Assembly (NCBI GenBank): GCA_946623145.1
Contig: CAMOQT010000001.1
Span: 1-45,963 of the forward strand
Source: an uncultured Azospirillum sp.
GTDB lineage: Bacteria > Pseudomonadota > Alphaproteobacteria > RF32 > CAG-239
DNA length: 45,963 nucleotides
Direction of reading: 5' to 3'
In this document: positions 1,530-23,453 of the stretch, one piece after another
Numbering within the stretch: the first letter of the stretch is position 1
Layout of the letters: each line of letters starts with the position of its first letter
Position numbers and translations under genes: made by a program
Notes under the pieces: generated by a model
What the model was told of the DNA's origin: nothing
The model's database searches: none
Seen by the model: the letters and a program-made list of their open reading frames with translations, nothing else

Positions 1530-3082
1530 TGGGTTCTAACCACACTACAAAATACACCGTTTCGACCTAAGCGACTGCAAACTTCATCGCCATCTTCCAA
1601 ACTTTCAACAGGACCAACCCTCAAATGGAACAATTCTTTGCCCTGACCATCTGCTGCAGCATCTACAGAGAAAAACGGCTCATAGCGACTTAAAGCGTCA
1701 GGATATTTTTTAGATAATGACGACCATAATTTTTCCAAATTATTGACATCTCCATCTGTTCCCAGTTCAATTGATATGTTGCTGTTATCTGCAAACATTA
1801 GCCCTGGACTGTTTTTGCCCATATTTGCCCAACTTCCTTCCGGGGCATATTGATGATTATTTGGAATTCTTTGCATTTTACTGTAATCAAAACCATCTAC
1901 AGAGGACATTCCGCCAAAGTTTCTTCCCGGACCATACGAAATATTAATTCCTCCATTAGGATTATTTGTATAATTTGAAACCATAAAATCATTGTTACCG
2001 GACATTCCTGCAGAACCAGAATACTGGGCTCCTTTATTCATTCCTTCCGGGATAGGAGCAGGAACTTGCCATTGTCCATCTGTATTTGCAACCGGTGTAA
2101 ATTCAAGACCGCTATCGTCTGAACGGCGCAATTTCAAGCAAACCATTCTTTTTCCGTTTCTCATAACCAGATCGCCAATACCTTCAACAATAATCAATCT
2201 ATTGTTCGGACCTTTAGTTCTGAAACCGACCGGAACTTCAATTCTCTCAACAATTAACGTAACAATCGGGCGTTGAGTCATTGTTAACGCTTTTTCCCCT
2301 AAATCTATGTAAGTAAAGATATCATCTCGCCAAACTCTTTCCGGAGCAATAACAACATCTTCCGGATTAGGGATATAAACTTCCATGTCAAACTTGAACT
2401 TAGAAACATCTAACGGAATAGATTTAATCCAATCTTGACGTTGAAAACTTCTCGTAAAAGTAGAATCCACCGACATATCATTTGAGCCGGAAGCATTTAT
2501 ATGACTTCCACCGCCACCAACGCTACCAGAACCTTTTCCTCCGATAACATCAATATCAATGATTGAGTTTGTCAAACGCTCCGTATTTACGCCTTCACTT
2601 TTTAGGTAGAAAACGTATTTATTTCCACTCCGTCCGAAAATAACAATATTCGTATCGACGCCAACATTTGCACCTTTTTTAGGATATAATAAAACAGTAT
2701 TCGGACCTGATATTTGTCCATCAAAACTAGAGCTATCACCTAAATAAATATCTTCAACCAATTCCCAGCTCGGAAAGTTTAATAAAGTCACCATTCCTTC
2801 TCTAACGCGAATAGGTAGGATAAGATCCGGAGACCAATAGTATTTTGAATAAGCCGGTTTAGTTTGTCCTTCACCTAAATTTTGCAGCGGATCCAACCAT
2901 GCCGTCTGAGTCATTCCCAACGCATTAAAGCCGGCATAATTCATATTCATAGGCATATACATTCCCTGACTTTGATCAGCATTTTGATCCAAACTCCCCA
3001 TTGTTGCCTGAGCGTATGCCTGCCCGGTCAATAACAATATTGAAATCATAAAAACAGAAAATGTACTTATTATTCTTGCCAT
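1526..3082 (-). CDS. virB9: VirB9/TrbG/CagX-family T4SS outer-membrane core protein with a C-terminal SPOR-like domain
   Basis: Signal peptide MARIISTFSVFMISILLLTGQAYAQA. The N-domain pattern is ILPIRVREGMVTLLNFPSWELVEDIYLGDSSSF...NTVLLYPKK...DTNIVIFGRSGNKYVFYLKS. The C-domain pattern is PERVWRDDIFTYIDLG...RPIVTLIV...LIIVEGIGDLVMRNGKRMVCLKL. The extra tail ends in ISIELG...LWSSLSKKYPDAL...ELFHLRVGPVESLEDGDEVCSRLGRNGVFCSVV, which looks SPOR-like. Confidence 0.85.
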   Translation of the reverse strand: MARIISTFSVFMISILLLTGQAYAQATMGSLDQNADQSQGMYMPMNMNYAGFNALGMTQTAWLDPLQNLGEGQTKPAYSKYYWSPDLILPIRVREGMVTLLNFPSWELVEDIYLGDSSSFDGQISGPNTVLLYPKKGANVGVDTNIVIFGRSGNKYVFYLKSEGVNTERLTNSIIDIDVIGGKGSGSVGGGGSHINASGSNDMSVDSTFTRSFQRQDWIKSIPLDVSKFKFDMEVYIPNPEDVVIAPERVWRDDIFTYIDLGEKALTMTQRPIVTLIVERIEVPVGFRTKGPNNRLIIVEGIGDLVMRNGKRMVCLKLRRSDDSGLEFTPVANTDGQWQVPAPIPEGMNKGAQYSGSAGMSGNNDFMVSNYTNNPNGGINISYGPGRNFGGMSSVDGFDYSKMQRIPNNHQYAPEGSWANMGKNSPGLMFADNSNISIELGTDGDVNNLEKLWSSLSKKYPDALSRYEPFFSVDAAADGQGKELFHLRVGPVESLEDGDEVCSRLGRNGVFCSVVRTQ

Positions 3083-3092
3083 TTTTCAAACC

Positions 3093-3839
3093 TTATCTTG
3101 TTTTATTATGCATTAATGAATACCGCATTACCGTGAAACCAACAGGATTATTTAAGCGATCATTAAATTTGACTGATTTTTTACGATACATAACACGCAA
3201 TGATGCTGTCCAATAATTCAACTCCGGCGCAGATGAATACGGATACATATCTTGGGTTTCATACTCTACTTGCCACAATCCCTGTCCAAGTTCGTTAACT
3301 GTCAAGATTTTTACGGTGCGTTGCAATCCTTTTTGTTTAACCAGTTCTAATGCTCTGTTAGCTGTTTTTTTGATAAACTCATCATAAACAGCCGGTGAAG
3401 ACATTTCCTGTACAGCTCCGCCCGGAAGCCAACGAATTTCCATTTCCGTAGCATCATTAATAATTGTACTGCGTTGTAAAATATAATTACGAACAAATGT
3501 TTCCGTAATTGACTTACTTGCGGTTAAATCACTCGAATATGGCTGGATATTATAAACTTGCTCTTCCTTATCTTGGAAACTCAGTAAATATGGCTCGACA
3601 CGAAACAGAGGAATAACCTGTACAATTGCCAACAGCAGAACAACATTACAGCATAAGCTAACCGCAGTTATTACAGCAAAAGCTCTTGCTGTCCACAGAT
3701 AACGTTTTTCATTGGTATTAGCAACAAAAGCCGAACTATGCCGCGAACGCATCGGCGGCTGCCTGTTCGGCTGACGAGCATTCTGCGTGCTTCCAATAAG
3801 ACGACGCTCGTTACCGTTATTCCCTAATTGGTTAACCAT
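3093..3839 (-). CDS. virB8: VirB8/TrbF-family T4SS inner-membrane protein (paralog 2)
   Basis: N-terminal cytoplasmic tail followed by one TM helix (FAVITAVSLCCNVVLLLAIVQVI). The periplasmic domain carries ETFVRNYILQRSTIINDATEMEIRWLPGG, YWTASL and the C-terminal NPVGFTVMRYS motif typical of VirB8. A GGAG RBS lies upstream. Confidence 0.85.
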   Translation of the reverse strand: MVNQLGNNGNERRLIGSTQNARQPNRQPPMRSRHSSAFVANTNEKRYLWTARAFAVITAVSLCCNVVLLLAIVQVIPLFRVEPYLLSFQDKEEQVYNIQPYSSDLTASKSITETFVRNYILQRSTIINDATEMEIRWLPGGAVQEMSSPAVYDEFIKKTANRALELVKQKGLQRTVKILTVNELGQGLWQVEYETQDMYPYSSAPELNYWTASLRVMYRKKSVKFNDRLNNPVGFTVMRYSLMHNKTR

Positions 3840-3854
3840 ATAGAATCTCCAATA

Positions 3855-4058
3855 TTAAATTGTTTCTATGAACCAGTCAGGTAAATTTTTAGGTAAATCA
3901 AGTTGCATACATGCGCAAGGAGATAGCTTTAGCTCATCAATACCTTTACCTACACCAACCGGCTCAGCTTCGTAATACGACCCGAAAATACCGCATGACG
4001 GCAGCATCAATAAAGCTATCGCTATTATAACTTTTTTTAACATTTTGAGATACCTCAT
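3855..4058 (-). CDS. Small lipoprotein, VirB7-like by size and position
   Basis: 67 aa. The signal sequence and lipobox are MLKKVIIAIALLMLPSCG. It lies between the two virB8 paralogs, immediately upstream of virB8-virB9. No sequence motif beyond the lipobox supports VirB7 homology. Confidence 0.5.
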   Translation of the reverse strand: MRYLKMLKKVIIAIALLMLPSCGIFGSYYEAEPVGVGKGIDELKLSPCACMQLDLPKNLPDWFIETI

Positions 4059-4142: not shown

Positions 4143-4898
4143 TTATATGCCTTCAACTCTGGTTTGAGAATAACGCAAAACAGTAAAGCCCATCGGGTTT
4201 ATTAATCTTCGACCAGTAAAAATGCGTTCACGGATAAAAATTCCAGTAATTGAGGCCGTCCAATACTTAGAAGTAATCGTTCTATCTAGCGATGTATTAT
4301 TTTTTCCCAAGGGCTCAAGATTATATGTTTTAAAATCGACTTTCCAGATTGGACTATGTTGTCCACCAACTCTTTGAACATTGATAATTTCGACTTCTTG
4401 AATGAGCTCTCCTCGACCTATTTCGGGCCAAATACTTTCTGTTTGCGATGTAAACTCATTGAAGATTCTGGGGGCGGATAAGAAATTAACAATTCCACCA
4501 GGAAACCACCGAATTCTCATTTCGGTTATATCATCTATAATAGTATTACGCATTTCAACATATTGGCGAACAAACATTTCTGCTATTTTATCTTTTGATG
4601 CCATATTCAAATCAATACTTTCAACACGTACCAAATCTTCACTATTATCTTGGGAAATGATTAAAAATGGTTTCACCGTTACTTGCGGCGCCAAACGAAA
4701 CAAAGATAAAGATGCGCTCCAGAAAAAACTAAGGGATAATACGGCTAAAAAGATAAAGAATCTTGATAACCACATATAATACTTAAGTTTGAGTGATGAC
4801 TCTTTTTGTTTATACTCATTTATGAATTCTATATGGCGCTCTGTATTTCCATCAGTAATTGCCAGAATATGACTTCCTTCAAGTCTGTTTTCTATCAT
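4143..4898 (-). CDS. virB8: VirB8/TrbF-family T4SS inner-membrane protein (paralog 1)
   Basis: One TM helix (FFIFLAVLSLSFFWSASLSLF). It carries EMFVRQYVEMRNTIIDDITEMRIRWFPGG, YWTASI and the C-terminal NPMGFTVLRYS. It is clearly paralogous to 3093..3839. Confidence 0.85.
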   Translation of the reverse strand: MIENRLEGSHILAITDGNTERHIEFINEYKQKESSLKLKYYMWLSRFFIFLAVLSLSFFWSASLSLFRLAPQVTVKPFLIISQDNSEDLVRVESIDLNMASKDKIAEMFVRQYVEMRNTIIDDITEMRIRWFPGGIVNFLSAPRIFNEFTSQTESIWPEIGRGELIQEVEIINVQRVGGQHSPIWKVDFKTYNLEPLGKNNTSLDRTITSKYWTASITGIFIRERIFTGRRLINPMGFTVLRYSQTRVEGI

Positions 4899-4908: not shown

Positions 4909-7900
4909 CTATAGATTATCCTCTAATTGACCACAATATGGATCTTCAATAAACTTAAGTTGTTGTTCAAAGCTCTTCTCTTCCTCTTGTTCTAGGCGAG
5001 CTGTGACTTCTTTATTTGCTCTCTGTGCTTTAATTTCTTCATCAAGCTTAGAATTGTTTTCTGTATCGTCACCTATAGAAACAAGTGCTTCGCTATCTTT
5101 TTGTAAGACACCAATTAAATTATTGATTCTATCCATACGTTCTTTTATTACCTCATTATCATTTCCTTGTAAAGCACTAACACTATTTTGCGCCTTCTTT
5201 AACATTTCATTACGATAATTCAAGAGAGAACTTCTGGCTGCATTATAATCACTGTCTCGGGTTAAATCAAAATCGCTAGCCATTGAAAATTTTAATCGAG
5301 AGAACAACTCTTTCAACTCTTCTTTTGTTTCATCCAAACTAACTTTAGATTCTTCTAAGTTTTGGAGAGATTCTTGTTCATAATCGACAGCTTTCAAAAA
5401 CTCTCCCAGTTGTGTCTTTTCCATACTGATTTCACTATCTAGTATGTCTTCAATTTTTCCTTCAGCATTCTGACCTTTATTTGCTTTAGACAATGCTTGG
5501 AAAACATTTTTAGCAAAAGCATTAAATTTCAAGCCATTATTGTATTCAAACAAATAGCCTAATTCGCTCTCTGTTTCTGCCGGCTTAAAACTTGAGAATG
5601 GTTTAAGTTTACCGGAACCTCTAATATCATTAGCCGGATTATAAACAGTTGCATTATTATGAGAAACCGTGAGTACAAATCCTGAACACTGTTGATAGTT
5701 TTTTTCCAAAAGTTCTTTACGTCGTTTAATGCTTTCTGTATCCTCTTGAGCAAACAAACCAACCATAATGCTTTCAGGTTTATAATAAATTACGTATCCT
5801 GACTTATGGTTTCCTTCATCATAGGAAGTGACAAGATAGTTCTTTCCTTCATCATACCAACAAGGATATTTTCCTGCATTTGCAAGTTTTGCTTCAGATG
5901 GTTTAATAACCGCACTTAAATCAATATCCTTTTCGATATACGCCGGAGAAGATAATATTTTTTTCCAAATATCTGGAATATAGGTCATATTTTCAAGAAG
6001 TCCTTCTTTTGTTATAAGACCATTATCTCCTTGCGGAATACTATCATAGTCGGAATAATCGAAATAAACAACATCGCGAACTGATGGTAACGGGCTGTCA
6101 GGAACAATTGCCGGAGCCAAGAAGTCTCGACGTTTTCCGTTGTTACTGACGAAGCATTCTTTATCCGGAACTTTACAAACATCTTGCTGACAAGCATCAT
6201 TTGTAATGTAAGCTTTGTAGATGTTCTTTAACAAAGACATAATACCGCTGTAAGATGAGTATTTTTGTATTCCCTCGCTGAAAGAAACTAAATCTTGATC
6301 ATTTAAGTTCTTTAAGTGCTCTATTAATTGAGCGTGTTCTGCTGTTACCATTTCTATATGACCAGGTGTATTTCCTTCCTGCTGAGGTCTTATTTCTCGC
6401 TTATACATCTGTTCATTAATATCATTGATGCGCTGAACCGTTTCATTAATAACTTCTCTTGCCGCTCCTTTTGTATCATTGACTAACATATTAGCATCTG
6501 CAAGTATTTCAGGAAGGGTAAATAAATATTTTTCTCCATTATCATCTACCGTCGGAATCTTGAAATTACTCTTATAATATTGAGCCAAGTCAACGTTATT
6601 ATATTTTGCCAATGCTGTCGCATAGTCTTTTTCAGCTTTAGCAATGCGCGTATCATACAAGATTGTTGCTTCCCTTGTTTCGTTTACATAATTTTTGTTA
6701 ACGTTCTCTTTTTGCGCCTTTATTAATTCTAATTTATCTTTATCTTCTTGTAATTTTGCCTTAAGATTCTCGACTTTCTGTTCTTGAGCCGGAACTTCAG
6801 TAGTCAAGCGCAATACGTCTTCCCGAGCTTTTGCCAAATTTTCTTTAGCCAACAACAATCTGTCGGGTTCTTCCTCTTCAACTTCTTTTTCCGTAACAAT
6901 AACCTTGTTATATGTTCGGATATCTTGAGGCATAACGTTTGATTCTTTCTCTTTTCCATCTATCATTTCCGACATTGAGATTGTCTTGGTCAAAGAAGTT
7001 TGCGGCTCTGTTGTGATAGAAACTTTTGGTGATGTTCTATAACCGGTATTATCACTTTGTTTTGTAACATTTGTTACCGTCTGAGTTGTTGTGGCGTTTG
7101 AAGTCCCAGCTTTAGTATTGGTAGAAGAGGCTGTTTTAGCGACACTTGTCGTATTCACAGAAACAGGATTTTCTGTTTTGATGATTTGTTTTACTCCAGA
7201 AGCTGTGATATTCTTAGCTGTCACATCAGCAACTTCTTCATCTGCAATTTCTAATGCTGGTTCTTTTTGTAATGTTAAATCTTTATCTTCTAATTTGTTT
7301 TGAGAAAGAGCCTGTACAGATGTTTTTAAGGTTTTCGTTTCAGCTTCTTTTGCCGAAATTGTTTTATCCTTTGTATCTGCAACTTTTTCAGAGACTTTCT
7401 CCGAAGCCTCCTTTATCTCTTTAGTATCACTAATTAAACTCTTCTGAAGAGTTGCTTTTTCTATCTGCGCACTTGCAACTAAGTTATGATCCTTATAAAA
7501 GCCTTGATAGATATTGTAACTTTGTTTTCCTGTAAATCCTGCGTTTAGATCTTTCTTATATTCTTCCGTTGTTGTTTCAAAGACTTTTGTATTTGGAACC
7601 TGAAGCTCGTGCTCATAAATTGTTTCAACTAAGCGCTCATTTGCAGAAACCTCTTGCTCGGCTTTTATTTTTTCATCTTTCAAGTTTTGCAATATCAATG
7701 TCTCTTTATCAACATTCGCTTGTTTTTGATTGATTTGATTGATTAGAGCTTTTTCTTCCTGCTCCAATTTTTTCATTTTTGTTTCTTTTGCATTATAAAT
7801 GCTTGTTATTTTTTGTTTCTTTTCGGCAATCAAAGCATCAACTTCACTAACAGCTTCTTCACGATCCTGTTTTAATTTGTTTTTAAGCTCAGTTAATCCT

Positions 7901-9591
7901 GCTTTATTGTTCGTCCGCTCTTTTCCGTCACTCAAAATATCAATTAATTTTGAGGCAACATTCAGGGCTAACTCATTTGTATTAAAGGCCTCAAGACTTT
8001 TAGCTATGCTGTCATATTTTCCTTCTATATATTGGTTATAATAGGACTGTGTATCTTTCCATACCGGATAGAGTACTTTTGCTTTACCCCAAGAACCGTC
8101 TTTGCCGTTTTTCAATTGATCTTCTGCCAACATTTTTGCAGCTTCTGCCCCTATATTCCAAGGAATACGACGGCTTTCTTTTAGCTCGGCATTAACCTGT
8201 TTTTCCTTATTTGCATCTTTAAATCCTGAACTGCTTGGTTGAACATCTTTTCCAATACTTTCTTCCAATTTTGTTAAATCGTTAGGATCAGCTGATTCGT
8301 CATAATCTGCCTCTTCAAAATCCTCAGCTGAAGCTACTGTTCCTGTATCTTCTGCTTTTGCTAAAATCAATGCTTTTACAGCCCATCCGGAAATACCTTT
8401 ACGCAAATCATAATTTGTAATGTTATTTTCGCTCAAATTACCATTCCACATTTTTGCCGGGTTTTCATACATCTCCCCGTAATATCTGATAGCACATTGT
8501 TCTGTTCTTTTAATAGCATCTATTGCGGCTTGATGTATTTTTATGTTTTTCTGATAGTTTTTATATATTGCTTTATAAGAAGGTAAATTCAAAGCATAGT
8601 TATGCATTTCAACTGCTTCTTTTAGATAATTATTGGCTTCTGTTATTTTTGCCAACAAAGCAAGATTTTCTCGGTTATCAGCATACGGGTCTTTCAAATC
8701 TGCCGGTGTTTCAACAAATTTAAGGCGATTTCCATAATCTAACTCTTCTTCATCATCTGTGACCTCAGCAAAAGAAATTGTGCTTTTATTATTGAAAGAA
8801 GCAGCTAACTTGATGTTATCTTCCATAAAATAGTCGTTCATTGCCTTTTTGTCTTTTGATACCGGATGAGATGGCGTTACAGACTCAGAACCTATCGCCT
8901 GAGCTGCAATATATTGTAACCGCAAGGCTTCCAACTCTTGGATCAGTTTAAGAACTGATGATAGTGTCTGATAAGTATTATATGAGTTTGTCCATGCTGT
9001 TAAAGCATCTTCATTGTTTTCTTGGGTCTTTTCATCAATATCTTTAACTGCTTGTTCCAACTTTTCTAAGTCTGCTTCCATTTGTCTTGCCAATGTATAG
9101 ATTTCAATAACCTTATCTTGATGGAATTCTTTGGCTTTATCTTGATATCCTCTACAAATATTAACATTTTCAGGTTTGCTCTTATCTTGGCAGTCAACAG
9201 GATATTGGAAGAATAATTTATACATTGCTTCTTGAACAGAAATTGGATCTGTATCTTTAGCTATTTTTGATTTTTTCAACTCTTTAACACCGGCTAAAGC
9301 TTTTTTTCTGGCATTTTTATAAATACCGCCAACAAAGGCTTTTGCTTTATCCATATATGAATCAAACATTGCCTTTGCTTGTTGGTTTATTTGTTGCATA
9401 TAAGCCGTCATCTGTGCTTGAATATTTTGGGCTTGGGTTTGAACCGCGGATAAAACTTCCTGAACATCTGTTCCGGCATCAATATCCGGACATGGCGGCA
9501 ACACCGGACATGGCGGCAAGAAAGCTTTCACCGGACCGGATAAAAAGCATACTGTAAGAATAGCAAGCAGATATATCTTTAATTTTCTCAT
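4909..9591 (-). CDS. Giant (1560 aa) secreted coiled-coil / Ser-Thr-rich protein, function unknown, in the VirB5/VirB6 slot
   Basis: Uninterrupted ORF with an AGGAGG RBS upstream. The signal peptide is MRKLKIYLLAILTVCFLSGPVKA, followed by FLPPCPVLPPCPD. Long heptad-like Q/K/E-rich stretches and a central T/S/N-rich low-complexity block are present. No hydrophobic helix occurs after the signal peptide. Confidence 0.75.
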   Translation of the reverse strand: MRKLKIYLLAILTVCFLSGPVKAFLPPCPVLPPCPDIDAGTDVQEVLSAVQTQAQNIQAQMTAYMQQINQQAKAMFDSYMDKAKAFVGGIYKNARKKALAGVKELKKSKIAKDTDPISVQEAMYKLFFQYPVDCQDKSKPENVNICRGYQDKAKEFHQDKVIEIYTLARQMEADLEKLEQAVKDIDEKTQENNEDALTAWTNSYNTYQTLSSVLKLIQELEALRLQYIAAQAIGSESVTPSHPVSKDKKAMNDYFMEDNIKLAASFNNKSTISFAEVTDDEEELDYGNRLKFVETPADLKDPYADNRENLALLAKITEANNYLKEAVEMHNYALNLPSYKAIYKNYQKNIKIHQAAIDAIKRTEQCAIRYYGEMYENPAKMWNGNLSENNITNYDLRKGISGWAVKALILAKAEDTGTVASAEDFEEADYDESADPNDLTKLEESIGKDVQPSSSGFKDANKEKQVNAELKESRRIPWNIGAEAAKMLAEDQLKNGKDGSWGKAKVLYPVWKDTQSYYNQYIEGKYDSIAKSLEAFNTNELALNVASKLIDILSDGKERTNNKAGLTELKNKLKQDREEAVSEVDALIAEKKQKITSIYNAKETKMKKLEQEEKALINQINQKQANVDKETLILQNLKDEKIKAEQEVSANERLVETIYEHELQVPNTKVFETTTEEYKKDLNAGFTGKQSYNIYQGFYKDHNLVASAQIEKATLQKSLISDTKEIKEASEKVSEKVADTKDKTISAKEAETKTLKTSVQALSQNKLEDKDLTLQKEPALEIADEEVADVTAKNITASGVKQIIKTENPVSVNTTSVAKTASSTNTKAGTSNATTTQTVTNVTKQSDNTGYRTSPKVSITTEPQTSLTKTISMSEMIDGKEKESNVMPQDIRTYNKVIVTEKEVEEEEPDRLLLAKENLAKAREDVLRLTTEVPAQEQKVENLKAKLQEDKDKLELIKAQKENVNKNYVNETREATILYDTRIAKAEKDYATALAKYNNVDLAQYYKSNFKIPTVDDNGEKYLFTLPEILADANMLVNDTKGAAREVINETVQRINDINEQMYKREIRPQQEGNTPGHIEMVTAEHAQLIEHLKNLNDQDLVSFSEGIQKYSSYSGIMSLLKNIYKAYITNDACQQDVCKVPDKECFVSNNGKRRDFLAPAIVPDSPLPSVRDVVYFDYSDYDSIPQGDNGLITKEGLLENMTYIPDIWKKILSSPAYIEKDIDLSAVIKPSEAKLANAGKYPCWYDEGKNYLVTSYDEGNHKSGYVIYYKPESIMVGLFAQEDTESIKRRKELLEKNYQQCSGFVLTVSHNNATVYNPANDIRGSGKLKPFSSFKPAETESELGYLFEYNNGLKFNAFAKNVFQALSKANKGQNAEGKIEDILDSEISMEKTQLGEFLKAVDYEQESLQNLEESKVSLDETKEELKELFSRLKFSMASDFDLTRDSDYNAARSSLLNYRNEMLKKAQNSVSALQGNDNEVIKERMDRINNLIGVLQKDSEALVSIGDDTENNSKLDEEIKAQRANKEVTARLEQEEEKSFEQQLKFIEDPYCGQLEDNL

Positions 9592-9609
9592 CTCTTTGTC
9601 CTCCTTGCC

Positions 9610-11094
9610 TTATAGTCCGATGCCTGTTGAGCCGCTTATCTTTCCGGTTATACTACCGGCTTTATTTATAGCGTTGCTGACGTTACCTAAACCACTTGAT
9701 CCTGTTACGCTACTGGCTTTTTCTGCCAAACCACCTATTTTTCCTAATAAATCATTGGCTTTTCCGGCTTTTTCTTTGAGACTGCTTAAGAAGCTTTGTT
9801 TTTCAAATTTATAATCGTCAAGACTAAAGACCAAAACATCTTTATCATAATTGTTCAATCTTCTATTGAGATAAACCATATCTTTAGCTGTCTCCATCTT
9901 TAATTCTATCAGCATTAATCTTGCAAATTTAAGAAGTTGGTTCATTTGTTCAACCTTAATCTTCATATCTAATTGTAGCATACCTTGTTCTGTCTCTGCT
10001 GTTGAGGCTTTTTCCTCAAATTCCTTTATTGTATCTTGTAATGTATCATCTTCACTCAAGACACTAATAGCTGTTGCATAAACATCTGCGGTATCTTCTA
10101 TGGCCATTTGGCGGCGGTAGCGAATAATTTCACCATTACGCTTACTCGACTCTTCTTCATTTTTCTCATAGAAATTATTTTTGATAATCGCGTTCATAGA
10201 TTCACCCGGATCATCAGTAATACCTTTCAAGCTCAAACTACTCTTTAGATTTATCCCCTGAGTTAAATTAGATAAATTAGCCATTTGAGTCATATTCTGT
10301 ACTAAAGATTCGGCTTTTGCTGCTGCAGATTTAATGCCATCAATACTTTTGCTTATTTCTTTCATTGTCTTTTCGGCATCTTCCTGCGTTTTAGCTCTTT
10401 CGGCAGCAGATTTATCTGAAATTTCTTTTATTTTTGCATTATTTTTATCAATAGCTTCCTGATACTTTTTCTTTTCCTCATCCGTTTCAGCTTTTGCTTT
10501 GCTTTCTTCTAATACTTTATTATTATCCTTGTATTTCTGGATTTCAGCATTTTTCTTATCTTCAATATCTTGCAATGCTTGTTGCAATTTTTCTTTAGCA
10601 AAACCTAAGTTAATCTCAAGATTTCGCATTTCTTGTGCTTGTTCCAGAGCTTTACTTGCTGTTTCAGTATATTCGCTACTAACCCCCATAGCTGACGCGG
10701 CATTTCCAGCTGCGGATGTAGCATTTTGAGCAGCTGAAGCCATATTCTGTGCCGCACCCATTGCTCCGTTAATATCCCCGCTGGCGGCGGCATTAGCAAA
10801 ATTTTTAGCAGAATCCACGGCTCCTTTTGCTGCATTTACAGCATTTTTAGCAGCATCAACTTTTCCCTTAACATCAGCTATAAGCCCTTTTGCTTCACCT
10901 GCTAATCGCGTTAACATTGTTACTTGGTTTTGAACATATCGCTGAACATCGGAAATTTTGGTTTGGACACGTCCGACAATTTCCGTAATACTTGTTCCCA
11001 TACTTCCGAAGTCAAACTTAACCTGAGCTTTTGCAGGAACAGAGCAAAAACTACATAAAATAAAGCAAATAACCGCTATTCTTATTTTACTCAT
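9610..11094 (-). CDS. Secreted Ala-rich coiled-coil protein (494 aa from the preferred start), function unknown
   Basis: I prefer the ATG at 11094 (MSKIRIAVICFILCSFCSVPAKA signal peptide). It overlaps the upstream stop as AATGAGTAA. The track start at 11127 adds 11 residues. After the signal comes QVKFDFGSMGTSITEIVGRVQTKISDVQRYVQNQ. An AAKNAVNAAKGAVDSAK alanine-rich region and a Gly/Ser-rich C-terminus follow. Confidence 0.7.
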   Translation of the reverse strand: MSKIRIAVICFILCSFCSVPAKAQVKFDFGSMGTSITEIVGRVQTKISDVQRYVQNQVTMLTRLAGEAKGLIADVKGKVDAAKNAVNAAKGAVDSAKNFANAAASGDINGAMGAAQNMASAAQNATSAAGNAASAMGVSSEYTETASKALEQAQEMRNLEINLGFAKEKLQQALQDIEDKKNAEIQKYKDNNKVLEESKAKAETDEEKKKYQEAIDKNNAKIKEISDKSAAERAKTQEDAEKTMKEISKSIDGIKSAAAKAESLVQNMTQMANLSNLTQGINLKSSLSLKGITDDPGESMNAIIKNNFYEKNEEESSKRNGEIIRYRRQMAIEDTADVYATAISVLSEDDTLQDTIKEFEEKASTAETEQGMLQLDMKIKVEQMNQLLKFARLMLIELKMETAKDMVYLNRRLNNYDKDVLVFSLDDYKFEKQSFLSSLKEKAGKANDLLGKIGGLAEKASSVTGSSGLGNVSNAINKAGSITGKISGSTGIGL

Positions 11095-11785
11095 TTTTCT
11101 GTTCCTCCTCAGATTTAACGGCTTCACGTTGAAGACCCGTTATGTTTTGAGTGTATTGATATGTTTGTAATGCGCTTTCCATCAGATAGATTTCAGACAT
11201 ACGCCCAACAATATCAAGCGCCATTATGTTTACTTCTCTTTGGACAGCCGCTTGATCATTCATATCTACATCCTGCGGTGTCGGTTCTTCCGTTAAAAGT
11301 GCTTTTTTAGAATGACCTATGGCATAAAGTGTTGAAACGGCATCTTGCATTAATTCTCTTTTAATTTGCTCGATATTTTCATATTGTTCGTCATCATTAC
11401 CTTCTTCGACAGGCGGATTATATTTTTCACCAACAGCATCTGCGACTTTATCTTGATCGTCAGCTTTAATCGGATTTGGTATGCCATCTGGTATTTTTGA
11501 TAAATTTTTCAATGCTTTCAAATCACCACCTGCTGCGGCCGCTAAACTCCCTTTAGCCTTATCTACAGCGCCCATTGCCTGACTCTTAAAGTTTTCAGCG
11601 CGCTCTTTGGCTTCCATTATTTTAGTTTTTATTTCATTGACTTTTTCTTGATAAAGTTTGGCTTTTTCTTGAATTTTCGTTATCATATTTTGAATTTTTT
11701 GCGGAAATTCTTTATCTGCACGTGCCGGAGAAGGAAAAATCATCATCAATGCAAAAAGTGCTATTATAATTTTTTTAGACATCAT
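11087..11785 (-). CDS. Secreted helical protein, 232 aa, VirB5/TrbJ-like by size, position and predicted helicity (weak)
   Basis: The signal peptide is MMSKKIIIALFALMMIFPSPARA, with an AAGGAGAAG RBS upstream. It is helix-prone throughout and has the size of VirB5/TrbJ proteins. It shares the motif pattern IYA[IT] ... E[IL]..[ML]E with its three neighbours. Confidence 0.55.
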   Translation of the reverse strand: MMSKKIIIALFALMMIFPSPARADKEFPQKIQNMITKIQEKAKLYQEKVNEIKTKIMEAKERAENFKSQAMGAVDKAKGSLAAAAGGDLKALKNLSKIPDGIPNPIKADDQDKVADAVGEKYNPPVEEGNDDEQYENIEQIKRELMQDAVSTLYAIGHSKKALLTEEPTPQDVDMNDQAAVQREVNIMALDIVGRMSEIYLMESALQTYQYTQNITGLQREAVKSEEEQKNE

Positions 11786-11793
11786 TCTTCTCC

Positions 11794-14481
11794 TTATTTT
11801 CCGACCGGCATTAATTTCGTCAGCGTTGTCAAACCATTGTATGCAATACGGCTGGCATATCCTTTAATAATGTCATCCAAAACAAAAATCATTTCTTTAT
11901 TACCTTTTACTAAGGCTTCTTTTCCTTTATGTGCATCACTTGCATCTTGAGCTGCTTCTTTTGTTTGTTTCATGATTCCTTGCTCATATTCTGCACTTTT
12001 TACCTTTTGGAAAAAGCCTGTTGCTAATATATTAATCATATTAGAATACTGTATTTGATCAATAAAAGCACGGCTGGTTAACTCTGTTTCTTTGTTATAT
12101 TGCTCTTGGAAAACTTTTTGATAACAAGTTTTAATAACCGAAGGATCGCTTCCTACTGTATACTCGCATTTCCGAGCTAAATTTTCAGGCATAATCGGAA
12201 AATTAATAGCTACTTCCGCATCTGCGTGAGCTACCTGATAATCATATTCTTTATCTGAATCATTATCTAAGCCGATGTCTGTTTCCGGATCCAAAATTTC
12301 TTTTGTGGCGGTATCTATCGCACCCATTCCCGCTGTTATTAAAGATGTTGCATAGATATTTCGAACACGATTCATTAAATAAACCAATTGGACATTAGCT
12401 ATTGCTATATTAGATATTCCGCTGTTATTATCTTCAACATTTTTTACCGTATCATATAACTTTGATAAAACATCTTCTTTGTATGATGCGGAAATGGTTT
12501 TATCTAAAAGGGCTTCAACATTTGCATTTTCTGCTTGTTCCATTTGCATATCTGCAATGATACCTGCAGTCTCTTTTCTAACAGTTTCATCTTCTGAGGT
12601 TAAATCCGTTGATAATTTTTTGATAGCATCCGGAATAACATTCATATCTTTTAAATCTTCTGGCTTAAGGCAAAATGTTTGAGCAAATAATTTAGACATT
12701 ATCAACATATCTGTTACTTGACCATTAGCCTCTACAACCATTTTATAATCAAAATCGCTGCAGTCTGACGCTTCTGTTGCAAATTTCAAAGTATCCGCAT
12801 GGCTTACTTTTATGCTATTTTGCCTGGCAAACTCTCCGTCATCCAACCACAAACTGCTATTCTTTTGCAAGGTCTTTGCCGGAGTAATCTTTGCAGGTTC
12901 CTTGCTCGAAGTAGCGGCCGGAGCTTTATCGGTTTTGCTCGGAGATATAGTAAAGGCTTTGCGTCCTCCTGTTGTTTTTTTTGCTGTCGGCTCATAAATC
13001 TTGCTATTTGAGTTAACAACTTTAGCTGTATCCATATCCGCAATAGCACCTAATGTCTTAGTATCGCCTTTACGAATTGCTTCAGTCATTGTCTGCTTTA
13101 AGGTTCTTAATGCCGCAAAGCTTCCTTCTTCGTTAGCGACATCTTCTATTTCCTTAATATTTTCTTCAGCCTCTGATAAATCTTCATCTTCAACAGTTCC
13201 TTCCGATGGAATTATCGGAGCAGATATTTCAGCTGGTGCAGCTGTCGGTGCTGCTATTTCTGTCGGTGCTGCCATTGTTGCAGATGCAGATGCCGTTGGG
13301 GATGTAAAAATCGTCTTCGGAGTTGATTTTAGCACTTTTGTTGTTGCTGCAGAAGTCGTTTGGGTTTTGCTTTGTCCTTTTGTTGCTCCTGACGTTTTAA
13401 CCGTACTTTTTGTTGCCGGTGCTACCGTCTTACTTAGTGATTTTTCACCGCTTAAGGTCGGATTAGCAATTTTTTCAGCTGAACTTAAAGCTTCATTATC
13501 ACTATGATTACCCGTTCCAGATCTTGCATAAAAACTCATGACAGGTCCTGTGATTTCTACGTCATCCTCATAATCGTCAGACGCCGCTAAGTCATCACTT
13601 GTTCCTTGAGTAAATCCAACTCTTCCCTTTGTTCCGGATGCAGATAGAGAAGTACTTCCACTCATTGGAGTTAAGGCCGTTGATCCGGATTGATTAAAGA
13701 TTGTTGTCTGTGTTGAACGTGGTTCTGTCGACAAAGCTTTTGTTCCTGTTTGTAAAGACTTTGTTGAGACGCTTGAACTTTGATTTGTATATTCACCGCC
13801 ACTTACTGCTGATGATCCTTTTGATGCAGATGTTGCTCCGCTTAAAGCAGATGTTGCACCACCTAAGGCAGATGTTGCACTACTAACTTTATTTTGGATG
13901 CCAGTTGCCATATTTTGAACAGCATTTATTTTTGAAGTTGCCTGATCTTTAATGGCATTAACTTTATCTTTTGCCTCATTAACTTTGTCTTTTATTTCAT
14001 TGACTTTATTTTTAGCCTCATTGACCTTGTCTTTTACTTCATTGACTTTATTTTTAGCGTCATTAACGGCTTTCTTTGCTTTATCAGCTTGCTCTTTAAT
14101 CTTTTGCTGATAAGCTTCTAATTTTGCTTTTTGCTCTTCATATTTCTTCTTTAACTCTTTAACTTTCTCAAGTTTCTTTTTGGCTTCTTCCTGTATTTTC
14201 TTAATTTTTTCTGCTTTCTTTTTCAGTTCTTCCGCTTTGCTTTGCGCCATCGCCGCCATACTTTTGGCTTTACCTATGGCATTATTGATTTGGGTTACTG
14301 CTTTACATTGCGTTACCATTTTAACTTTTTGCTGAACCTGCGTTACACCGGATTGCACCTTTTTTGCAATATTTCCAAAATCTACGGTTGGAAACGCATC
14401 AGCGGTAGGAACAAGGGCTATCGAGCTTAATAAACATACTAAGCCAAATATAGTTGTCTTGACATAATTGTTTAAATGCAT
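11794..14481 (-). CDS. Secreted 895-aa coiled-coil / low-complexity protein with a TrbJ/VirB5-like N-terminal motif
   Basis: An AAGGAGGG RBS lies upstream. The signal peptide is ...IFGLVCLLSSIALVPTADA, followed by FPTVDFGNIAKKVQSGVTQVQQKV. This resembles the [IV]P[VI][IV]D..N...Q......QQ start of TrbJ/VirB5 as I recall it. Heptad repeats (DKVNEAK-type, about 6 copies), a long S/T/A/P-rich spacer and a structured-looking C-terminal third follow. Confidence 0.7.
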   Translation of the reverse strand: MHLNNYVKTTIFGLVCLLSSIALVPTADAFPTVDFGNIAKKVQSGVTQVQQKVKMVTQCKAVTQINNAIGKAKSMAAMAQSKAEELKKKAEKIKKIQEEAKKKLEKVKELKKKYEEQKAKLEAYQQKIKEQADKAKKAVNDAKNKVNEVKDKVNEAKNKVNEIKDKVNEAKDKVNAIKDQATSKINAVQNMATGIQNKVSSATSALGGATSALSGATSASKGSSAVSGGEYTNQSSSVSTKSLQTGTKALSTEPRSTQTTIFNQSGSTALTPMSGSTSLSASGTKGRVGFTQGTSDDLAASDDYEDDVEITGPVMSFYARSGTGNHSDNEALSSAEKIANPTLSGEKSLSKTVAPATKSTVKTSGATKGQSKTQTTSAATTKVLKSTPKTIFTSPTASASATMAAPTEIAAPTAAPAEISAPIIPSEGTVEDEDLSEAEENIKEIEDVANEEGSFAALRTLKQTMTEAIRKGDTKTLGAIADMDTAKVVNSNSKIYEPTAKKTTGGRKAFTISPSKTDKAPAATSSKEPAKITPAKTLQKNSSLWLDDGEFARQNSIKVSHADTLKFATEASDCSDFDYKMVVEANGQVTDMLIMSKLFAQTFCLKPEDLKDMNVIPDAIKKLSTDLTSEDETVRKETAGIIADMQMEQAENANVEALLDKTISASYKEDVLSKLYDTVKNVEDNNSGISNIAIANVQLVYLMNRVRNIYATSLITAGMGAIDTATKEILDPETDIGLDNDSDKEYDYQVAHADAEVAINFPIMPENLARKCEYTVGSDPSVIKTCYQKVFQEQYNKETELTSRAFIDQIQYSNMINILATGFFQKVKSAEYEQGIMKQTKEAAQDASDAHKGKEALVKGNKEMIFVLDDIIKGYASRIAYNGLTTLTKLMPVGK

Positions 14482-14560: not shown

Positions 14561-16942
14561 TCACGCAATATTTAAATATTTTGTAACAAAGTTAGCTTCT
14601 CCATACTCCTTGATTAAATCTTGTACTAATAATACATTCTTACGGCTCGAGTTATACAACCGCAAATATGGTCCTAAACCGCTTAAATCAACGTCTAGAA
14701 TCACAGACTCTCCTGTTGCCGGACGAGACAACAGAATCGCATAAGGAAAATCTCGATATGATTTACCAAAGATGAAATCTATCTCTCTTTGTGTCAGATT
14801 CCAGTTTGCATAGTCTTCCGGCATTGCTTGCGGATTCCGGAAGAAAATAATAGTTTGACATTGACCACGAATAACTTCACCAACACCCAGTTTATCAATA
14901 ATATTTGGCTGTTGAAATGCACATAAATAAGCTTGGCGTTTTTTACGACCTTCTTGCAAACCAATCATAAAATAGTCTCTAAACATCGGGTGTTTTAACA
15001 TCGGCGCCGTTTCATCGATCATAATTAATGACGGAACACCTGTATCACCGACCTCAGATTGAATACGATGCATAATATAGCTAATAACGGCCGGAGCTAA
15101 TGTTTCATCCTCAAAAATATGTGTAAAGTCAAAAGCCATAAACCGTTTTGAACTCAAATCCAAGCTATCATTTTCCGCATTGAAAATATTACCATATTGA
15201 TCCGGATTTATCCAACGGAATAATTCTCGACGCATATTTCCTGTCGGAGAAAAACAGCTCTTGTAAAGGTTTCTCAAAATTCTCTCTTCAGGTTTCAGAT
15301 AATCAAATGCCGTTGTTACCGCTCGACCGATTTCTCTTTCTGAGAGAGCATCATCAACCATAGTAATAGCTTTCAACCACCGACGTAAGAATGCTCTGTT
15401 GTTTGGATTATTAGCGCAATCGAATGGGTTAAGAGAGACATTTTTCTCATCTCCATCAAATCCGACATATGCCCCTTGAATGGCTCGTGTAAAGATTTCT
15501 GCACCACGGTGGCGGTCAAAGAAAAATACCTTTAAATCATGGTGACGCATTGCCTGACCTGCCAGAAAAGTCAGTAAAGTTGTTTTACCTTGTCCAGTCG
15601 GACCAATAATACAACAGTGAGCCACCGCAGCATCTTCGCTTGAAACATGGAATTGGAATCGATATGCTGATCCAGCAGTAGTTCTGAAAATTGAAATAGC
15701 TCCCGGACCCCAGTCACTCTTGCTAAAGCCTTCTGCCGGTTTGTCGAAGCAAACAGCCATAGCAACAACTCTCGACAAGTAGCGATATGTTCTCGGATAG
15801 ACATCATAGGTTGGGAATTGGTTAAAGAATGCCGCTTGGGCAACCCAACCTTCTCGTACAGGTGTTACACTAAACAAACGGCAAATACGTTGTACTTCAC
15901 TTTCACCAAAAGTAATATCTTCCATATTGTCGCCGCGGATAATAATATCCATAGAATATTCCGTTAAAGCTTGATAATCGGCATCACTATCTTCAATTGC
16001 GGATAAAGCTTCACCATATTGAGCAACAACATCTGCAGAAAAGCTTGTTGCTGTGGCCATTCTTTGTTGTTGCATCAGTAAAGCTCTCGCTTTAGGCTTA
16101 AACATCGGTTTAATGTTATGCAACATCGTTAATTCACAATTAATTGACAGCAAACTTGCTATCATATTTTCATCCATATAATCTCCTGGAGTACGAATAC
16201 CCATAACAACTTCATATTTTTCTTTATTGCCGGAGAAAAACTTGATAACACCTTCTTCTTCAGTGAAATGGATATGGTCGGCCGTCAGCATTTCGTTTAA
16301 CATAGAACCTTCTGCGTTACCAACCTTGGGTTCAGGTTTACTTATCGGACTGCAAATGCGGCTAAATACTGAAAAAGGACTTTCCGATGCCGGACTATCT
16401 TCTGTTTCAAACATCGGTTTGACACCATAATCATTTAATGTCGCCAATAATGATTGAGATGTATAATTTAAATCTTTTAAGGCATCGTTTCGATCAGGTA
16501 CGGATAATATAATATAATGAGTGTTACTAAAGACCTGATCCAATGTATTGTGCCACGTTTCAGAAACTTGACTTAGAATTTTGTTACCAAAATCTCCTTC
16601 ATCTTCTTCCATTTCTATTTTATCACGGATTGTTAAAACCCGACAAGTGACCTGAAGTTCGCCCATACTGTCAATCCATAGTTTTCGGGCTTCCATCATA
16701 GACTCTACTTTTTCTTCAGTAACGAAACTTAAATCTACGCCTTCGACTTTAAAAACTCTGGCAAAAGAGCCGTTATAGCAACGTATAGTTATGCCATCAG
16801 CCATTAATTTACTAAAAGGAAGAAAATCGGATACTCTGGACTCTCGCGGTTGAGGTAAAATATATTGACCGAATCTTGTTACCCAAACACCAGCAAACGC
16901 AGCTGCTGAAATAAAACCAACAACTGCCACTAAAACTTCCAT
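14561..16942 (-). CDS. virB4: VirB4/TrbE-family T4SS ATPase
   Basis: Walker A is IIGPTGQGKTTLLTFL and Walker B is PSLIMIDETAPML. Length is about 793 aa. The N-terminal pattern FLPFSKLMADGITIRCYNGSFARVFKVEGVDL is typical of VirB4. I prefer the ATG at 16942, which has AAGG 10 nt upstream and lies downstream of the virB3 stop. The track start at 17050 would overlap virB3 by 65 nt. Confidence 0.9.
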   Translation of the reverse strand: MEVLVAVVGFISAAAFAGVWVTRFGQYILPQPRESRVSDFLPFSKLMADGITIRCYNGSFARVFKVEGVDLSFVTEEKVESMMEARKLWIDSMGELQVTCRVLTIRDKIEMEEDEGDFGNKILSQVSETWHNTLDQVFSNTHYIILSVPDRNDALKDLNYTSQSLLATLNDYGVKPMFETEDSPASESPFSVFSRICSPISKPEPKVGNAEGSMLNEMLTADHIHFTEEEGVIKFFSGNKEKYEVVMGIRTPGDYMDENMIASLLSINCELTMLHNIKPMFKPKARALLMQQQRMATATSFSADVVAQYGEALSAIEDSDADYQALTEYSMDIIIRGDNMEDITFGESEVQRICRLFSVTPVREGWVAQAAFFNQFPTYDVYPRTYRYLSRVVAMAVCFDKPAEGFSKSDWGPGAISIFRTTAGSAYRFQFHVSSEDAAVAHCCIIGPTGQGKTTLLTFLAGQAMRHHDLKVFFFDRHRGAEIFTRAIQGAYVGFDGDEKNVSLNPFDCANNPNNRAFLRRWLKAITMVDDALSEREIGRAVTTAFDYLKPEERILRNLYKSCFSPTGNMRRELFRWINPDQYGNIFNAENDSLDLSSKRFMAFDFTHIFEDETLAPAVISYIMHRIQSEVGDTGVPSLIMIDETAPMLKHPMFRDYFMIGLQEGRKKRQAYLCAFQQPNIIDKLGVGEVIRGQCQTIIFFRNPQAMPEDYANWNLTQREIDFIFGKSYRDFPYAILLSRPATGESVILDVDLSGLGPYLRLYNSSRKNVLLVQDLIKEYGEANFVTKYLNIA

Positions 16943-16985
16943 ATTGCTTAAACCTTGAACAAATATGGAAAAGAAGTCAAATTCC

Positions 16986-17276
16986 TCAGGGTGCAAATTT
17001 ATTCCCCTTACTCTTATATATATTATTACTAATATGGCGGCTTTGTCCAAAAGCCATTATCATTGTTGATATATGAGGATCTTTTTGCCCCATATATACA
17101 ACAAAAATGTGTCCAAGAGCTATTGAACCCATAAAAAATATCGGATTTATATTCCAAATTCCCATACAAATAAACATTAAGGGAAATTGTAATCCGAGAT
17201 TCATTAAAGTAGGCAAAAACGGCCCCCACAGTATTTTTGGAGGATTAGCAACTGCTTTTAAGATCATCTCTCTCAT
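16986..17276 (-). CDS. virB3: VirB3/TrbD-family small inner-membrane T4SS protein
   Basis: 96 aa. The start ILKAVANPPKILWGPFLPTLMNLGLQFPLMFI resembles the L.KG.TRP....GVP start of VirB3. Two hydrophobic helices are present. It lies immediately upstream of virB4. Confidence 0.75.
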   Translation of the reverse strand: MREMILKAVANPPKILWGPFLPTLMNLGLQFPLMFICMGIWNINPIFFMGSIALGHIFVVYMGQKDPHISTMIMAFGQSRHISNNIYKSKGNKFAP

Positions 17277-17369: not shown

Positions 17370-17909
17370 TTATTCAAATGCCCATAAAATATTATTTTCT
17401 TCTTTACAATATTGCTTTGCTTGTGTTTTGGACAAAGGCAATCCATTATTTCCCCAGCTAAATTCATAACTCCCCGAATCATTCAGAATTGCCATAGAAA
17501 TAAGTCCTAATTTATCTTCCTCAGCCCAATACAAAGAAGCTAATTCTATACATTCTTTTTTATTCAAATCTTTATATCCGATTACAAAACTATGCTGTCC
17601 CGGCATTACTTGATTACCATTAATATCGCTACCTATAATAACACTTTTATTTAAATTGTTCAAAATTTGATTGTTATTCATTTTACCGACATATAAATTC
17701 AGTTTTATGGCTTCACTATTATTCAATCCCCAATAATCGGGACGATTTCTATAGTAAGCGCGAATATTTTCTGACATTTTTATGATATCTTTATTAGCTT
17801 GAACAATTTCTGAAGAGGGTCTTTCAAAACAAAGAATTACACCTATCAGCAAAATACTTGCTAATGAACTCAGCCATATATATATTATAAGTTTCTCTTT
17901 GTTTTTCAT
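17370..17909 (-). CDS. Type IVb pilin-like protein (PilS/BfpA-like globular domain) with a non-canonical N-terminus
   Basis: I prefer the ATG at 17909, one nt after the pilR stop; the track start at 17987 overlaps pilR by 77 nt. The N-terminus MKNKEKLIIYIWLSSLASILLIGVILCFE forms a single hydrophobic helix. The remainder follows a BfpA-like layout: SENIRAYYRNRPDYWGLNNSEAI..., ...KDLNKKECIELASL... and ...LSKTQAKQYCK. The two Cys are spaced like the pilin D-region disulfide. No Gly(-1) or Glu(+5) is present. Confidence 0.5.
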   Translation of the reverse strand: MKNKEKLIIYIWLSSLASILLIGVILCFERPSSEIVQANKDIIKMSENIRAYYRNRPDYWGLNNSEAIKLNLYVGKMNNNQILNNLNKSVIIGSDINGNQVMPGQHSFVIGYKDLNKKECIELASLYWAEEDKLGLISMAILNDSGSYEFSWGNNGLPLSKTQAKQYCKEENNILWAFE

Positions 17910-17910
17910 C

Positions 17911-19023: not shown

Positions 19024-19032
19024 ATTAAACTC

Positions 19033-20736: not shown

Positions 20737-20741
20737 TGAAA

Positions 20742-23430: not shown

Positions 23431-23453
23431 CTGTTTATACCTTCCTAATGGAT

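Follow-up and report, generated by a model that had tools for sequence, protein, structure and literature searches.

The 45,963-nt stretch of DNA analyzed here (the window; contig CAMOQT010000001.1 of assembly GCA_946623145.1, from an uncultured Azospirillum sp.) carries genes of a type IV secretion system (T4SS), and its flanking housekeeping genes and even G+C content indicate that this locus is chromosomal. According to the list of open reading frames (ORFs), four intact genes on the minus strand fill positions 4909-14481, bounded by virB4 on one side and virB8 on the other. These genes, termed A to D from virB4 towards virB8 (Table 1), and the origin of their products are the subject of this work. 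They are closely spaced: 79 nt separate virB4 from A, an 8-nt spacer with GGAG lies between A and B, B and C overlap (ATGAGTAA) downstream of GAGGAGG, and an 18-nt spacer with AGGAGG precedes D. A GTG at 11127 would extend the C product to 505 amino acids (aa), but the ATG start is favored by the GAGGAGG Shine-Dalgarno sequence and by the gene call in locus L068. Each of the four proteins shows a single N-terminal hydrophobic segment followed by ADA, ARA, AKA or VKA, as in AXA-type signal peptides; past residue 40, the highest Kyte-Doolittle 19-residue means are 0.63-0.96, as against 1.7-2.7 for the transmembrane (TM) segments of VirB8 and VirB4. An earlier description made from the letters alone (the sequence-only reading) had proposed four translationally coupled signal-peptide proteins with no later hydrophobic helix. 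Its coordinates are exact, hydropathy confirms the topology, and both spacers and the overlap were found again on re-reading the junctions. Its further statement that coiled coils and S/T-rich spacers dominate these proteins is overstated, since K/E-rich stretches make up 12-30% and S/T-rich stretches 0-16% of each, and D has large, conserved, non-repetitive domains; A does contain true heptad repeats.

A genome scan recovered 64 such loci, each from a different species of uncultured Alphaproteobacteria of the gut or rumen (source labels among them are CAG:495, 'Azospirillum sp.' metagenome-assembled genomes and Candidatus Scatocola), 58 of which are complete. The slot between virB4 and virB8 holds four to seven secreted proteins in every complete locus (58/58) and a polytopic protein in none (0/58), a few members showing one borderline hydrophobic segment. 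Recurrence of the same secreted, TM-less content in these 58 loci indicates that the arrangement is not a product of chance. The commonest array comprises six genes, encoding P1 (~600 aa), P2 (~190 aa), P3 (~390 aa), P4 (~175 aa), P5 (~460 aa) and D (~1310 aa), and the four-gene array is the form found in the subclade of the window. Both size and copy number depart from the norm of VirB5, a single protein of about 220-260 aa: the array products measure 895, 232, 494 and 1560 aa, and there are four to seven genes per locus.

We compared the array with reference sets taken from plasmids, namely seven annotated VirB5/TrbJ and seven VirB6/TrbL proteins. After the signal peptide, the mature N-terminus of the seven VirB5/TrbJ proteins displays the motif phi-P/x-V-phi-D, as in GIPVAID, AMPVVD or GVPTFD, and the array counterparts are FPTVDFG in A, QVKFDFG in C and PPCPDIDAG in D. 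A simple pattern for this motif fits about half or more of the A/P1 and C/P5 family members. Profile-profile alignment with hhalign matched the first 110 aa of A/P1 to VirB5 at 93.4%, to the plasmid VirB5 set at 95.6% and to both combined at 95.0%; the match spans 43-60 columns, from the motif through a conserved A-I-G, and reversed controls reached 0.2-0.5%. For the N-terminus of D, the VirB5 match was 66-81% (reversed, at most 0.3%), the 66% case extending over 131 columns. C/P5 and D thus carry weaker versions of the VirB5 N-terminus than A/P1, and P2 and P4, with a signal peptide and no motif, stayed at or below 0.6%. In the A family, A27/A28 and D34 are nearly invariant; outside the signal peptide, D34 and G70 are the most conserved residues, and both fall within the VirB5-like N-terminus. 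Gene A is therefore likely a greatly enlarged VirB5 orthologue.

The VirB6/TrbL comparison gave the opposite result. No Pfam match to VirB6/TrbL (PF04610) was found in A-D, which lack hydrophobic segments after the signal peptide, and none of the nine positional families scored above 2% in hhalign against the alignment of the seven VirB6/TrbL proteins. The claim of the sequence-only reading that the array proteins contain no VirB6/TrbL domain is thereby corroborated, and its further claim, that they replace VirB6, holds at the level of the locus.

Relations among the array members were likewise assessed with hhalign, each comparison being accompanied by a reversed-alignment control. C corresponds to P5 (99.9%; reversed 33%, over 41 columns only), B to P4 (98.4%; reversed 0.1%) and the C-terminus of A to P2 (99.4%; reversed 0.2%). 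The core of B also resembles residues 123-246 of D (95.8%; reversed 1.1%), P2 resembles both B and P4 (about 84%; reversed 0.3%), and the N-termini of A, C, P5 and B match one another at 95-97% (reversed 2-19%). These controlled matches define two shared modules, an N-terminal one and a 'YA...R ... LEA' one, the second connecting B with the C-terminus of A and with residues 123-246 of D. A hidden Markov model (HMM) of the B/P4 core module run against the other families did not detect the module at the sequence level. The post-signal motif and internal 'YA ... LE' pattern listed by the sequence-only reading are thus real at the family level. The paralogy that it deduced from them survives in part, through the A/P2 and B/D matches; direct BLAST among A-D is weak, with a best E of 7e-8 that lies within coiled coil. 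An apparent A-P3 homology (98%) was discarded as a coiled-coil artefact because the reversed alignment also gave 95%, and the P3-C match is suspect as well.

At the level of individual genes, B encodes a secreted helical protein orthologous to the ~175-aa P4 of six-gene arrays by hhalign, for which a word-indexed homology search returned 4-7 relatives. C, the P5 orthologue, has the VirB5-like mature N-terminus given above, a helical, K/E-rich middle part and an S/G-rich tail. The C-terminal region of A consists of two tandem P2-like domains, each with a Cys pair (P2 HMM against the 895-aa A protein, E=7.5e-17); elsewhere P2 is a stand-alone protein of ~190 aa in six-gene arrays, homologous to these domains. 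The tandem repeats of gene A (13826-14067) are candidates for strain-to-strain copy-number variation.

D is the most conserved array member and is present in every locus. Indexed searches retrieved 23 clusters of D homologues, and an exhaustive HMMER scan with D residues 361-1560 yielded 200 clusters (50% identity), almost all of them made up of proteins of 1200-1800 aa. Its conserved domains hold invariant Trp, Gly and Cys residues, including the stretches RKGISGWAVKA, WNIGAEAAKML and YPVW.DT within residues ~300-560, and its N-terminal module includes an 'IYT..R..E' segment that resembles the B core. AlphaFold2 models were obtained for D residues 1-620 and 1000-1560 and searched against the PDB with Foldseek. 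The first is all-helical, with long helices at 39-90, 140-189 and 196-234 and a better-defined helical domain at ~340-500 (mean predicted local distance difference test score, pLDDT, 62; predicted template modeling score 0.31). The second (mean pLDDT 72) shows an alpha/beta domain flanked by helical segments, for which Foldseek found no significant match or structural relative in the PDB (best E=0.77). Apart from the modules that it shares, D stands as a family of its own with conserved N- and C-terminal domains.

The closest cultured relatives provide an evolutionary context for the array. The window VirB4 is 38% identical to that of a Microvirga sp. VF16 plasmid (pMVF16-3, record L069), 35% to that of Sphingosinicella sp. 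BN140058 (p1, L079) and 34% to that of an Erythrobacter aureus YH-07 plasmid (L077), followed by Candidatus Paracaedimonas plasmids (30%) and all others at or below 27%. The first three plasmids carry complete conjugative operons in the order MobA relaxase, VirB2, VirB3, VirB4, a secreted protein of 251-273 aa, a second secreted protein that we call X, VirB7, VirB8 to VirB11 and VirD4. Several of these genes, including those of X and, in two plasmids, VirB4, are annotated merely as hypothetical. A VirB7 lipoprotein with K-x-S/T-P-C-A-C occurs in Microvirga and Erythrobacter, and the Sphingosinicella operon has no annotated one. By hhalign, the proteins of 251-273 aa are VirB5 (97.8%, 182 columns). 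X (422-493 aa, no TM segment) is the last gene product before VirB7/VirB8 and occupies the VirB6 slot, yet its profile matches the plasmid VirB5 set (96.5%, 181 columns) and VirB5 (80%, 152 columns) and not VirB6 (0.1%); judged by these alignments, X is a VirB5 derivative, its N-terminal domain stemming from VirB5. No polytopic protein is encoded within the Erythrobacter and Sphingosinicella operons. A 228-aa Microvirga protein with three TM segments was considered as a mini-VirB6 and rejected (hhalign 0.4%), being missing from the other two operons. A query with Paracaedimonas VirB6 for a divergent homologue elsewhere on the plasmids found nothing, which is weak negative evidence. One step further out, Paracaedimonas has a canonical VirB5 and a polytopic VirB6.

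Array proteins and plasmid VirB5/X have in common the spacing of motif, helix and I/L-G, and a Pro-rich or Cys-Pro stretch precedes phi-D both in X (GPCPSPIMPPPCIVADPGK; FPCPIIDPK) and in D (FLPPCPVLPPCPDIDAG). On the basis of the plasmid layout and the N-terminal matches, we read A as an enlarged VirB5 and D as an enlarged X, the orthology of D and X being probable. Taken together, these data favor, with a probability of roughly 0.55, the interpretation that A-D are Sec-exported soluble T4SS components derived from VirB5, that is, hypertrophied stalk/tip and adhesin proteins. What would be new is a set of VirB5-derived proteins that have increased both in size and in number, within a T4SS lineage that has no VirB6 in its operons.

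Several results weigh against a VirB5 origin. The VirB5 likeness of A is limited to about 45 mature residues; full-length comparison aligned A over only 37-62 columns, and for none of A-D did the alignment with VirB5 continue over the full length, past the first 40-130 columns at the N-terminus. Against the C-terminal half of plasmid VirB5, C reached 52% and B 23%, and B lacks the N-terminal motif. Beyond the N-terminus the match between D and X is weak (3-14%), so that their equivalence rests on position and a short N-terminal resemblance. Pfam and NCBIfam scans with PF07996, TIGR02791 and TIGR02780 gave no match in A-D at E<=0.1, PF07996 is absent among the top 25 families listed for 42 B/P4 members (E<=1) and 56 A/P1 members, and scans of A-D and of the whole families returned coiled-coil noise only; VirB6/TrbL models are likewise missing from those top-25 lists. 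PDB sequence searches with single sequences and three family profiles retrieved nothing relevant, and Foldseek matched D 1-620 to generic helical bundles (E>=0.02) and to no VirB5, TraC or TrwJ in the PDB. Structure prediction for D thus displayed three N-terminal helices, at modest pLDDT, and no VirB5-type relative. An HMM of VirB5 scored array sequences no better than reversed decoys, and we therefore dropped HMM-versus-sequence evidence, leaving the profile-profile support for the N-terminal part. VirB10, VirB11 and VirD4 were not seen near the locus, so that pilus assembly or secretion by this machine is conjectural, and VirB6, whose absence refers to the locus, could lie elsewhere in the genome. 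Hence, the VirB5/TrbJ-like family proposed by the sequence-only reading stands for the N-terminus of A (93-96%) and, more weakly, of C and D; over the full length it is less certain, and curated families do not support it.

The decoy-level HMM scores, the A-P3 match reproduced by its reversed alignment, the weak pairwise BLAST and the lack of curated matches are also what would be expected if A-D were unrelated, lineage-specific coiled-coil proteins of the envelope or surface, resembling VirB5 through signal peptides, helical composition and chance. We regard this account as the least probable of those considered. Reversed controls of the key matches remain at about 1% or less, and families with a signal peptide and no motif do not rise above the 0.6% background. 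The motif, the helix and the I/L-G spacing recur in the nearest plasmid VirB5 and X, the array follows virB4 at the canonical VirB5 position, and conservation of the slot extends to about 64 species.

We next consider how fast the array evolves in relation to the machine. Between the window and locus L005, identity amounts to 92% for VirB4, 91% for VirB7 and 78% for the second VirB8 and VirB9, falling to 34% for A, 30% for C and 42% for D. For B, identity to the counterparts of the sister loci L007-L009 is 33-36%, and L005 yielded no match. Across loci, A/P1 proteins measure 203-920 aa and D proteins 1094-1989 aa, the sort of orthologue length variation that the sequence-only reading had suggested looking for. 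Rapid divergence and this length spread fit exposed, interaction-driven parts better than a buried scaffold. They thus bear on a different explanation, in which A-D form a lineage-specific periplasmic or outer-membrane scaffold, likened to the Cag- or Dot/Icm-specific core-complex proteins, or stand in for the VirB6 platform in soluble form. They would then neither reach the surface nor function as adhesins, and the VirB5-like N-terminus would serve only as a docking peptide. The array does lie inside the machine operon and is tightly coupled; D is found in every locus with strongly conserved domains and invariant Trp/Gly/Cys; X sits exactly in the VirB6 slot on plasmids that have no polytopic VirB6; and long coiled coils, common in periplasm-spanning scaffolds, give weak matches of EnvC, TolA and DotF type. 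Core scaffolds, however, normally keep pace with their machine, whereas the array stands at 30-42% where VirB4 stands at 92%, the number of members (four to seven) and their lengths vary widely, and S/T-rich linkers, like tandem repeats, are a typical mark of exposed fibers. A scaffold is, in our view, rather unlikely, though it deserves more credit than the other alternatives to a VirB5-derived stalk, tip or adhesin.

Fast divergence would also suit cargo. A-D might be toxins or effectors, directed at host or competitor cells, that are exported by Sec and then released through the T4SS outer-membrane channel independently of VirD4, in the manner of pertussis toxin by Ptl; a two-step route has been described for Ptl and Brucella VirB (PMC12857230). 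Classical signal peptides without an anchor in all four proteins and the lack of a VirD4 or VirB11 near the locus agree with it, and the alpha/beta domain at the C-terminus of D, with no known relative, could be an activity domain. Nevertheless, the conserved part of A is its VirB5-like N-terminus, the conservation of D extends to its N-terminal region too, no enzymatic or toxin domain was detected in the array, and homologous X/VirB5 proteins belong to ordinary conjugative operons with relaxase and VirD4, where a toxin is unexpected. Cargo thus appears improbable to us.

If A-D are VirB5-derived components, the following course of events can be envisaged. The ancestral layout would be that of the Microvirga, Erythrobacter and Sphingosinicella plasmids, in which virB4 is followed by a normal-sized VirB5 and by X at the usual place of virB6. 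In the gut lineage VirB5 would have grown into A and X into D, so that D, like X, stands at the usual VirB6 position, and duplication and domain shuffling would have supplied further members (B and C in the window, P2-P5 in six-gene arrays). After cleavage of the signal peptide, the phi-P-T/V-phi-D helix may dock into the central VirB3/VirB4/VirB8 assembly, comparable to VirB5 in the R388 stalk. Coiled-coil rods and S/T-rich linkers would then carry the variable globular domains at the C-termini (in A the P2-like domains with their Cys pairs, in D the alpha/beta domain) across the outer-membrane complex of VirB7/VirB9 and display them on the cell surface. There they could serve as adhesins or sense contact, with diversifying selection acting on them, as parts of a composite tip/adhesin structure. 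Docking, surface exposure and the adhesin role of A-D are inferred.

In current structural models, VirB6 is a pentameric platform for VirB5 docking and pilus assembly; it is treated as a near-universal T4SS signature and is normally indispensable. A bolder extension, which we put forward tentatively and hold to be less probable than the VirB5 origin itself, is that a branch of P-type T4SS comprising the three plasmids and the gut chromosomal systems works without a membrane VirB6, with soluble, Sec-exported VirB5-derived proteins as central stalk and platform that were elaborated in the gut lineage into a multi-protein, rapidly diversifying surface organelle. Were this true, operons complete except for VirB6, with secreted VirB5-derived proteins in its place, would either challenge the platform model or point to a platform of another kind. 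In three members of this branch the conjugative system is complete and sits on a plasmid of a cultured bacterium, which makes the question directly amenable to genetics. The A-D families are in any case prevalent, uncharacterized and fast-evolving exported proteins of Alphaproteobacteria from the human and animal gut, and as such candidates for determining contact with hosts or partners in a section of the microbiota about which little is known.

Table 1. Coordinates of array genes, their predicted modules and neighboring features in the window.
Feature	Position	Strand	Description
Gene A	11794-14481	-	895 aa; directly after virB4
A signal peptide, aa 1-29	14395-14481	-	Predicted cleavage after ADA
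A VirB5-like N-terminal module, aa 30-72	14266-14394	-	FPTVD, helix alpha-1, AIG with invariant G70
A heptad coiled coil, aa 73-182	13936-14265	-	K/E-rich; from composition and tandem repeats
A 21-nt (7-aa) tandem repeat	13945-14067	-	x5.9; encodes KVNE[AI]KD
A second 21-nt tandem repeat	13826-13880	-	x2.6; LGGATSA-like units
A low-complexity linkers, aa 203-290 and 351-405	13267-13875	-	S/T/P/G-rich; from composition
A C-terminal region, aa 585-725 and 703-888	11818-12729	-	Two tandem P2-like domains; P2 HMM, hhalign
Gene B	11087-11785	-	232 aa
B core module, aa 136-218	11132-11380	-	LYAxAxxxR ... IAxRxNxIxxLEA
Gene C	9610-11094	-	494 aa counted from ATG at 11094
Gene D	4909-9591	-	1560 aa; last gene ahead of virB8
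D N-terminal module, aa 24-240	8872-9522	-	FLPPCPVLPPCPDID followed by three long helices
D conserved helical domain, aa ~300-560	7912-8694	-	Invariant Trp/Gly; pLDDT locally 80-88
D variable central region, aa ~561-1030	6502-7911	-	Coiled coil and S/T-rich spacer, aa 817-867
D conserved C-terminal region, aa ~1031-1560	4912-6501	-	Alpha/beta domain then helical tail
D alpha/beta domain, aa ~1180-1375	5467-6054	-	AlphaFold2, pLDDT 80-90 in core
561-aa protein	25779-27464	-	Heads the pilus/T4SS block
Type IVb pilus operon	17370-25683	-	Complete; co-oriented with the T4SS genes
virB3-like	16986-17276	-	96 aa, hydrophobic; kept upstream of virB4 in relatives
virB4	14561-17050	-	Pfam CagE_TrbE_VirB; TIGR00929, E=6e-109; upstream array boundary
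virB8 copy 1	4143-4898	-	Downstream array boundary
VirB7-like lipoprotein	3855-4043	-	62 aa, LPSC lipobox, KLSPCAC; between virB8 copies
virB8 copy 2	3093-3839	-	
virB9	1526-3082	-	CagX domain and C-terminal SPOR domain
1533-aa protein	1-1529	-	Right after virB9; N-terminal TM helix
ORF	583-1176	+	Antisense shadow of beta-flower/RHS-like repeats

Upstream of the array, the longest virB4 ORF starts at TTG, encodes 829 aa and shares 65 nt with the virB3-like ORF; its relatives measure 809-811 aa, and the true start therefore lies probably about 18-20 codons downstream. A type IVb pilus operon, encoding TcpQ, a secretin, PilO, a PilP-like protein, the PilQ ATPase, the PilR platform and a PilS-like pilin, leads straight into virB3/virB4. 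This fusion is confined to the subclade of the window (the window itself, L005 and L007-L009), and 17 other loci have instead two or three TrbC/VirB2 pilin paralogues upstream. In other subclades, as seen in L001 (1-2763) and L016 (2431-3531), a pilin segment of TrbC/VirB2 type is embedded in large proteins upstream of virB3, whose lengths go from 366 to more than 978 aa; this suggests enlarged or fused pilin paralogues. The 561-aa protein at the head of the block has one N-terminal hydrophobic segment and no Pfam or NCBIfam match. On the other side, the virB8-lipoprotein-virB8 order is that of islet C of the Rickettsia rvh system, and the lipoprotein motif resembles Rickettsia VirB7/ComB7. 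The C-terminal SPOR domain of VirB9, a peptidoglycan-binding domain, is kept in relatives of 518-570 aa. In the region after virB9 (1-1529 in the window, 11554-21557 in L068), a 1533-aa protein carries dozens of beta-flower/RHS-like repeats (DGTVVDKDGNVIGK), and a second protein of more than 2366 aa comes next; these giant proteins were considered as VirB10 and rejected, no TrbI domain having been found.

How does the array compare with known systems? A literature search on the T4SS of this clade retrieved no papers. The position after virB4 is canonical for VirB5, whose fold is a three-helix bundle with a globular appendage (TraC, 1R8I; TrwJ). Like the VirB5/TrbJ/TraC/TrwJ proteins (PF07996), the array members are Sec-exported, soluble and helical and begin directly after virB4; they also share phi-P-V/T-phi-D and, after it, a long helix that closes with I/L-G, best seen in A/P1 and more weakly in C/P5 and D. 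Unlike VirB5, they count four to seven instead of one, A, C and D are 2-7 times larger, and they carry additional domains, coiled-coil, S/T-rich and globular, that belong to unknown families. X differs from D in being one third of its length, lacking the 300-560 region and the C-terminal alpha/beta domain, and in belonging to complete conjugative operons with relaxase, VirB10, VirB11 and VirD4.

The Helicobacter Cag system offers neighboring pilus-associated genes, CagL, CagI and CagH, with a short motif in common, CagL being VirB5-like. Cag keeps a VirB6 homologue, CagW, and the sizes and domain content of these proteins differ from those of the array; we know of no detectable sequence relation between the two sets. 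In established T4SS models, a VirB5 pentamer sits on a VirB6 pentamer in the stalk and is later found at the pilus tip (PMC9259494).

The rvh system of Rickettsiales is likewise chromosomal and alphaproteobacterial, with virB3-virB4 followed by several large divergent proteins, and it shares the virB8-virB7-virB8-virB9 order and a VirB7 with a K-S-P-Cys motif (LPSC...KLSPCAC in the window; PMC2653234). By analogy with its scattered genes, VirB6, VirB10, VirB11 and VirD4 may be located elsewhere in the genome of the window (PMC2653234). The rvh array, however, is made of five polytopic VirB6 paralogues and VirB5 is lacking (PMC2653234), whereas in the window the array is TM-less with VirB5-like N-termini and VirB6 is the missing part; virB10-virB11-virD4 follow virB9 in rvh, as opposed to the giant beta-flower repeat proteins of the window. 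Bartonella Trw, a conjugation-derived T4SS with no VirD4, has several variable copies of VirB5 (TrwJ) (PMC12857230), and the array likewise has several members; the variable VirB5/VirB2 copies of Trw are thought to serve host-specific adhesion without translocation (PMC12857230). In Trw, trwJ-trwI-trwH and trwL have been duplicated in tandem, the copies are of normal size, and VirB6 is kept. Far from being recent tandem duplicates, the window paralogues are ancient, highly diverged, domain-shuffled and hypertrophied.

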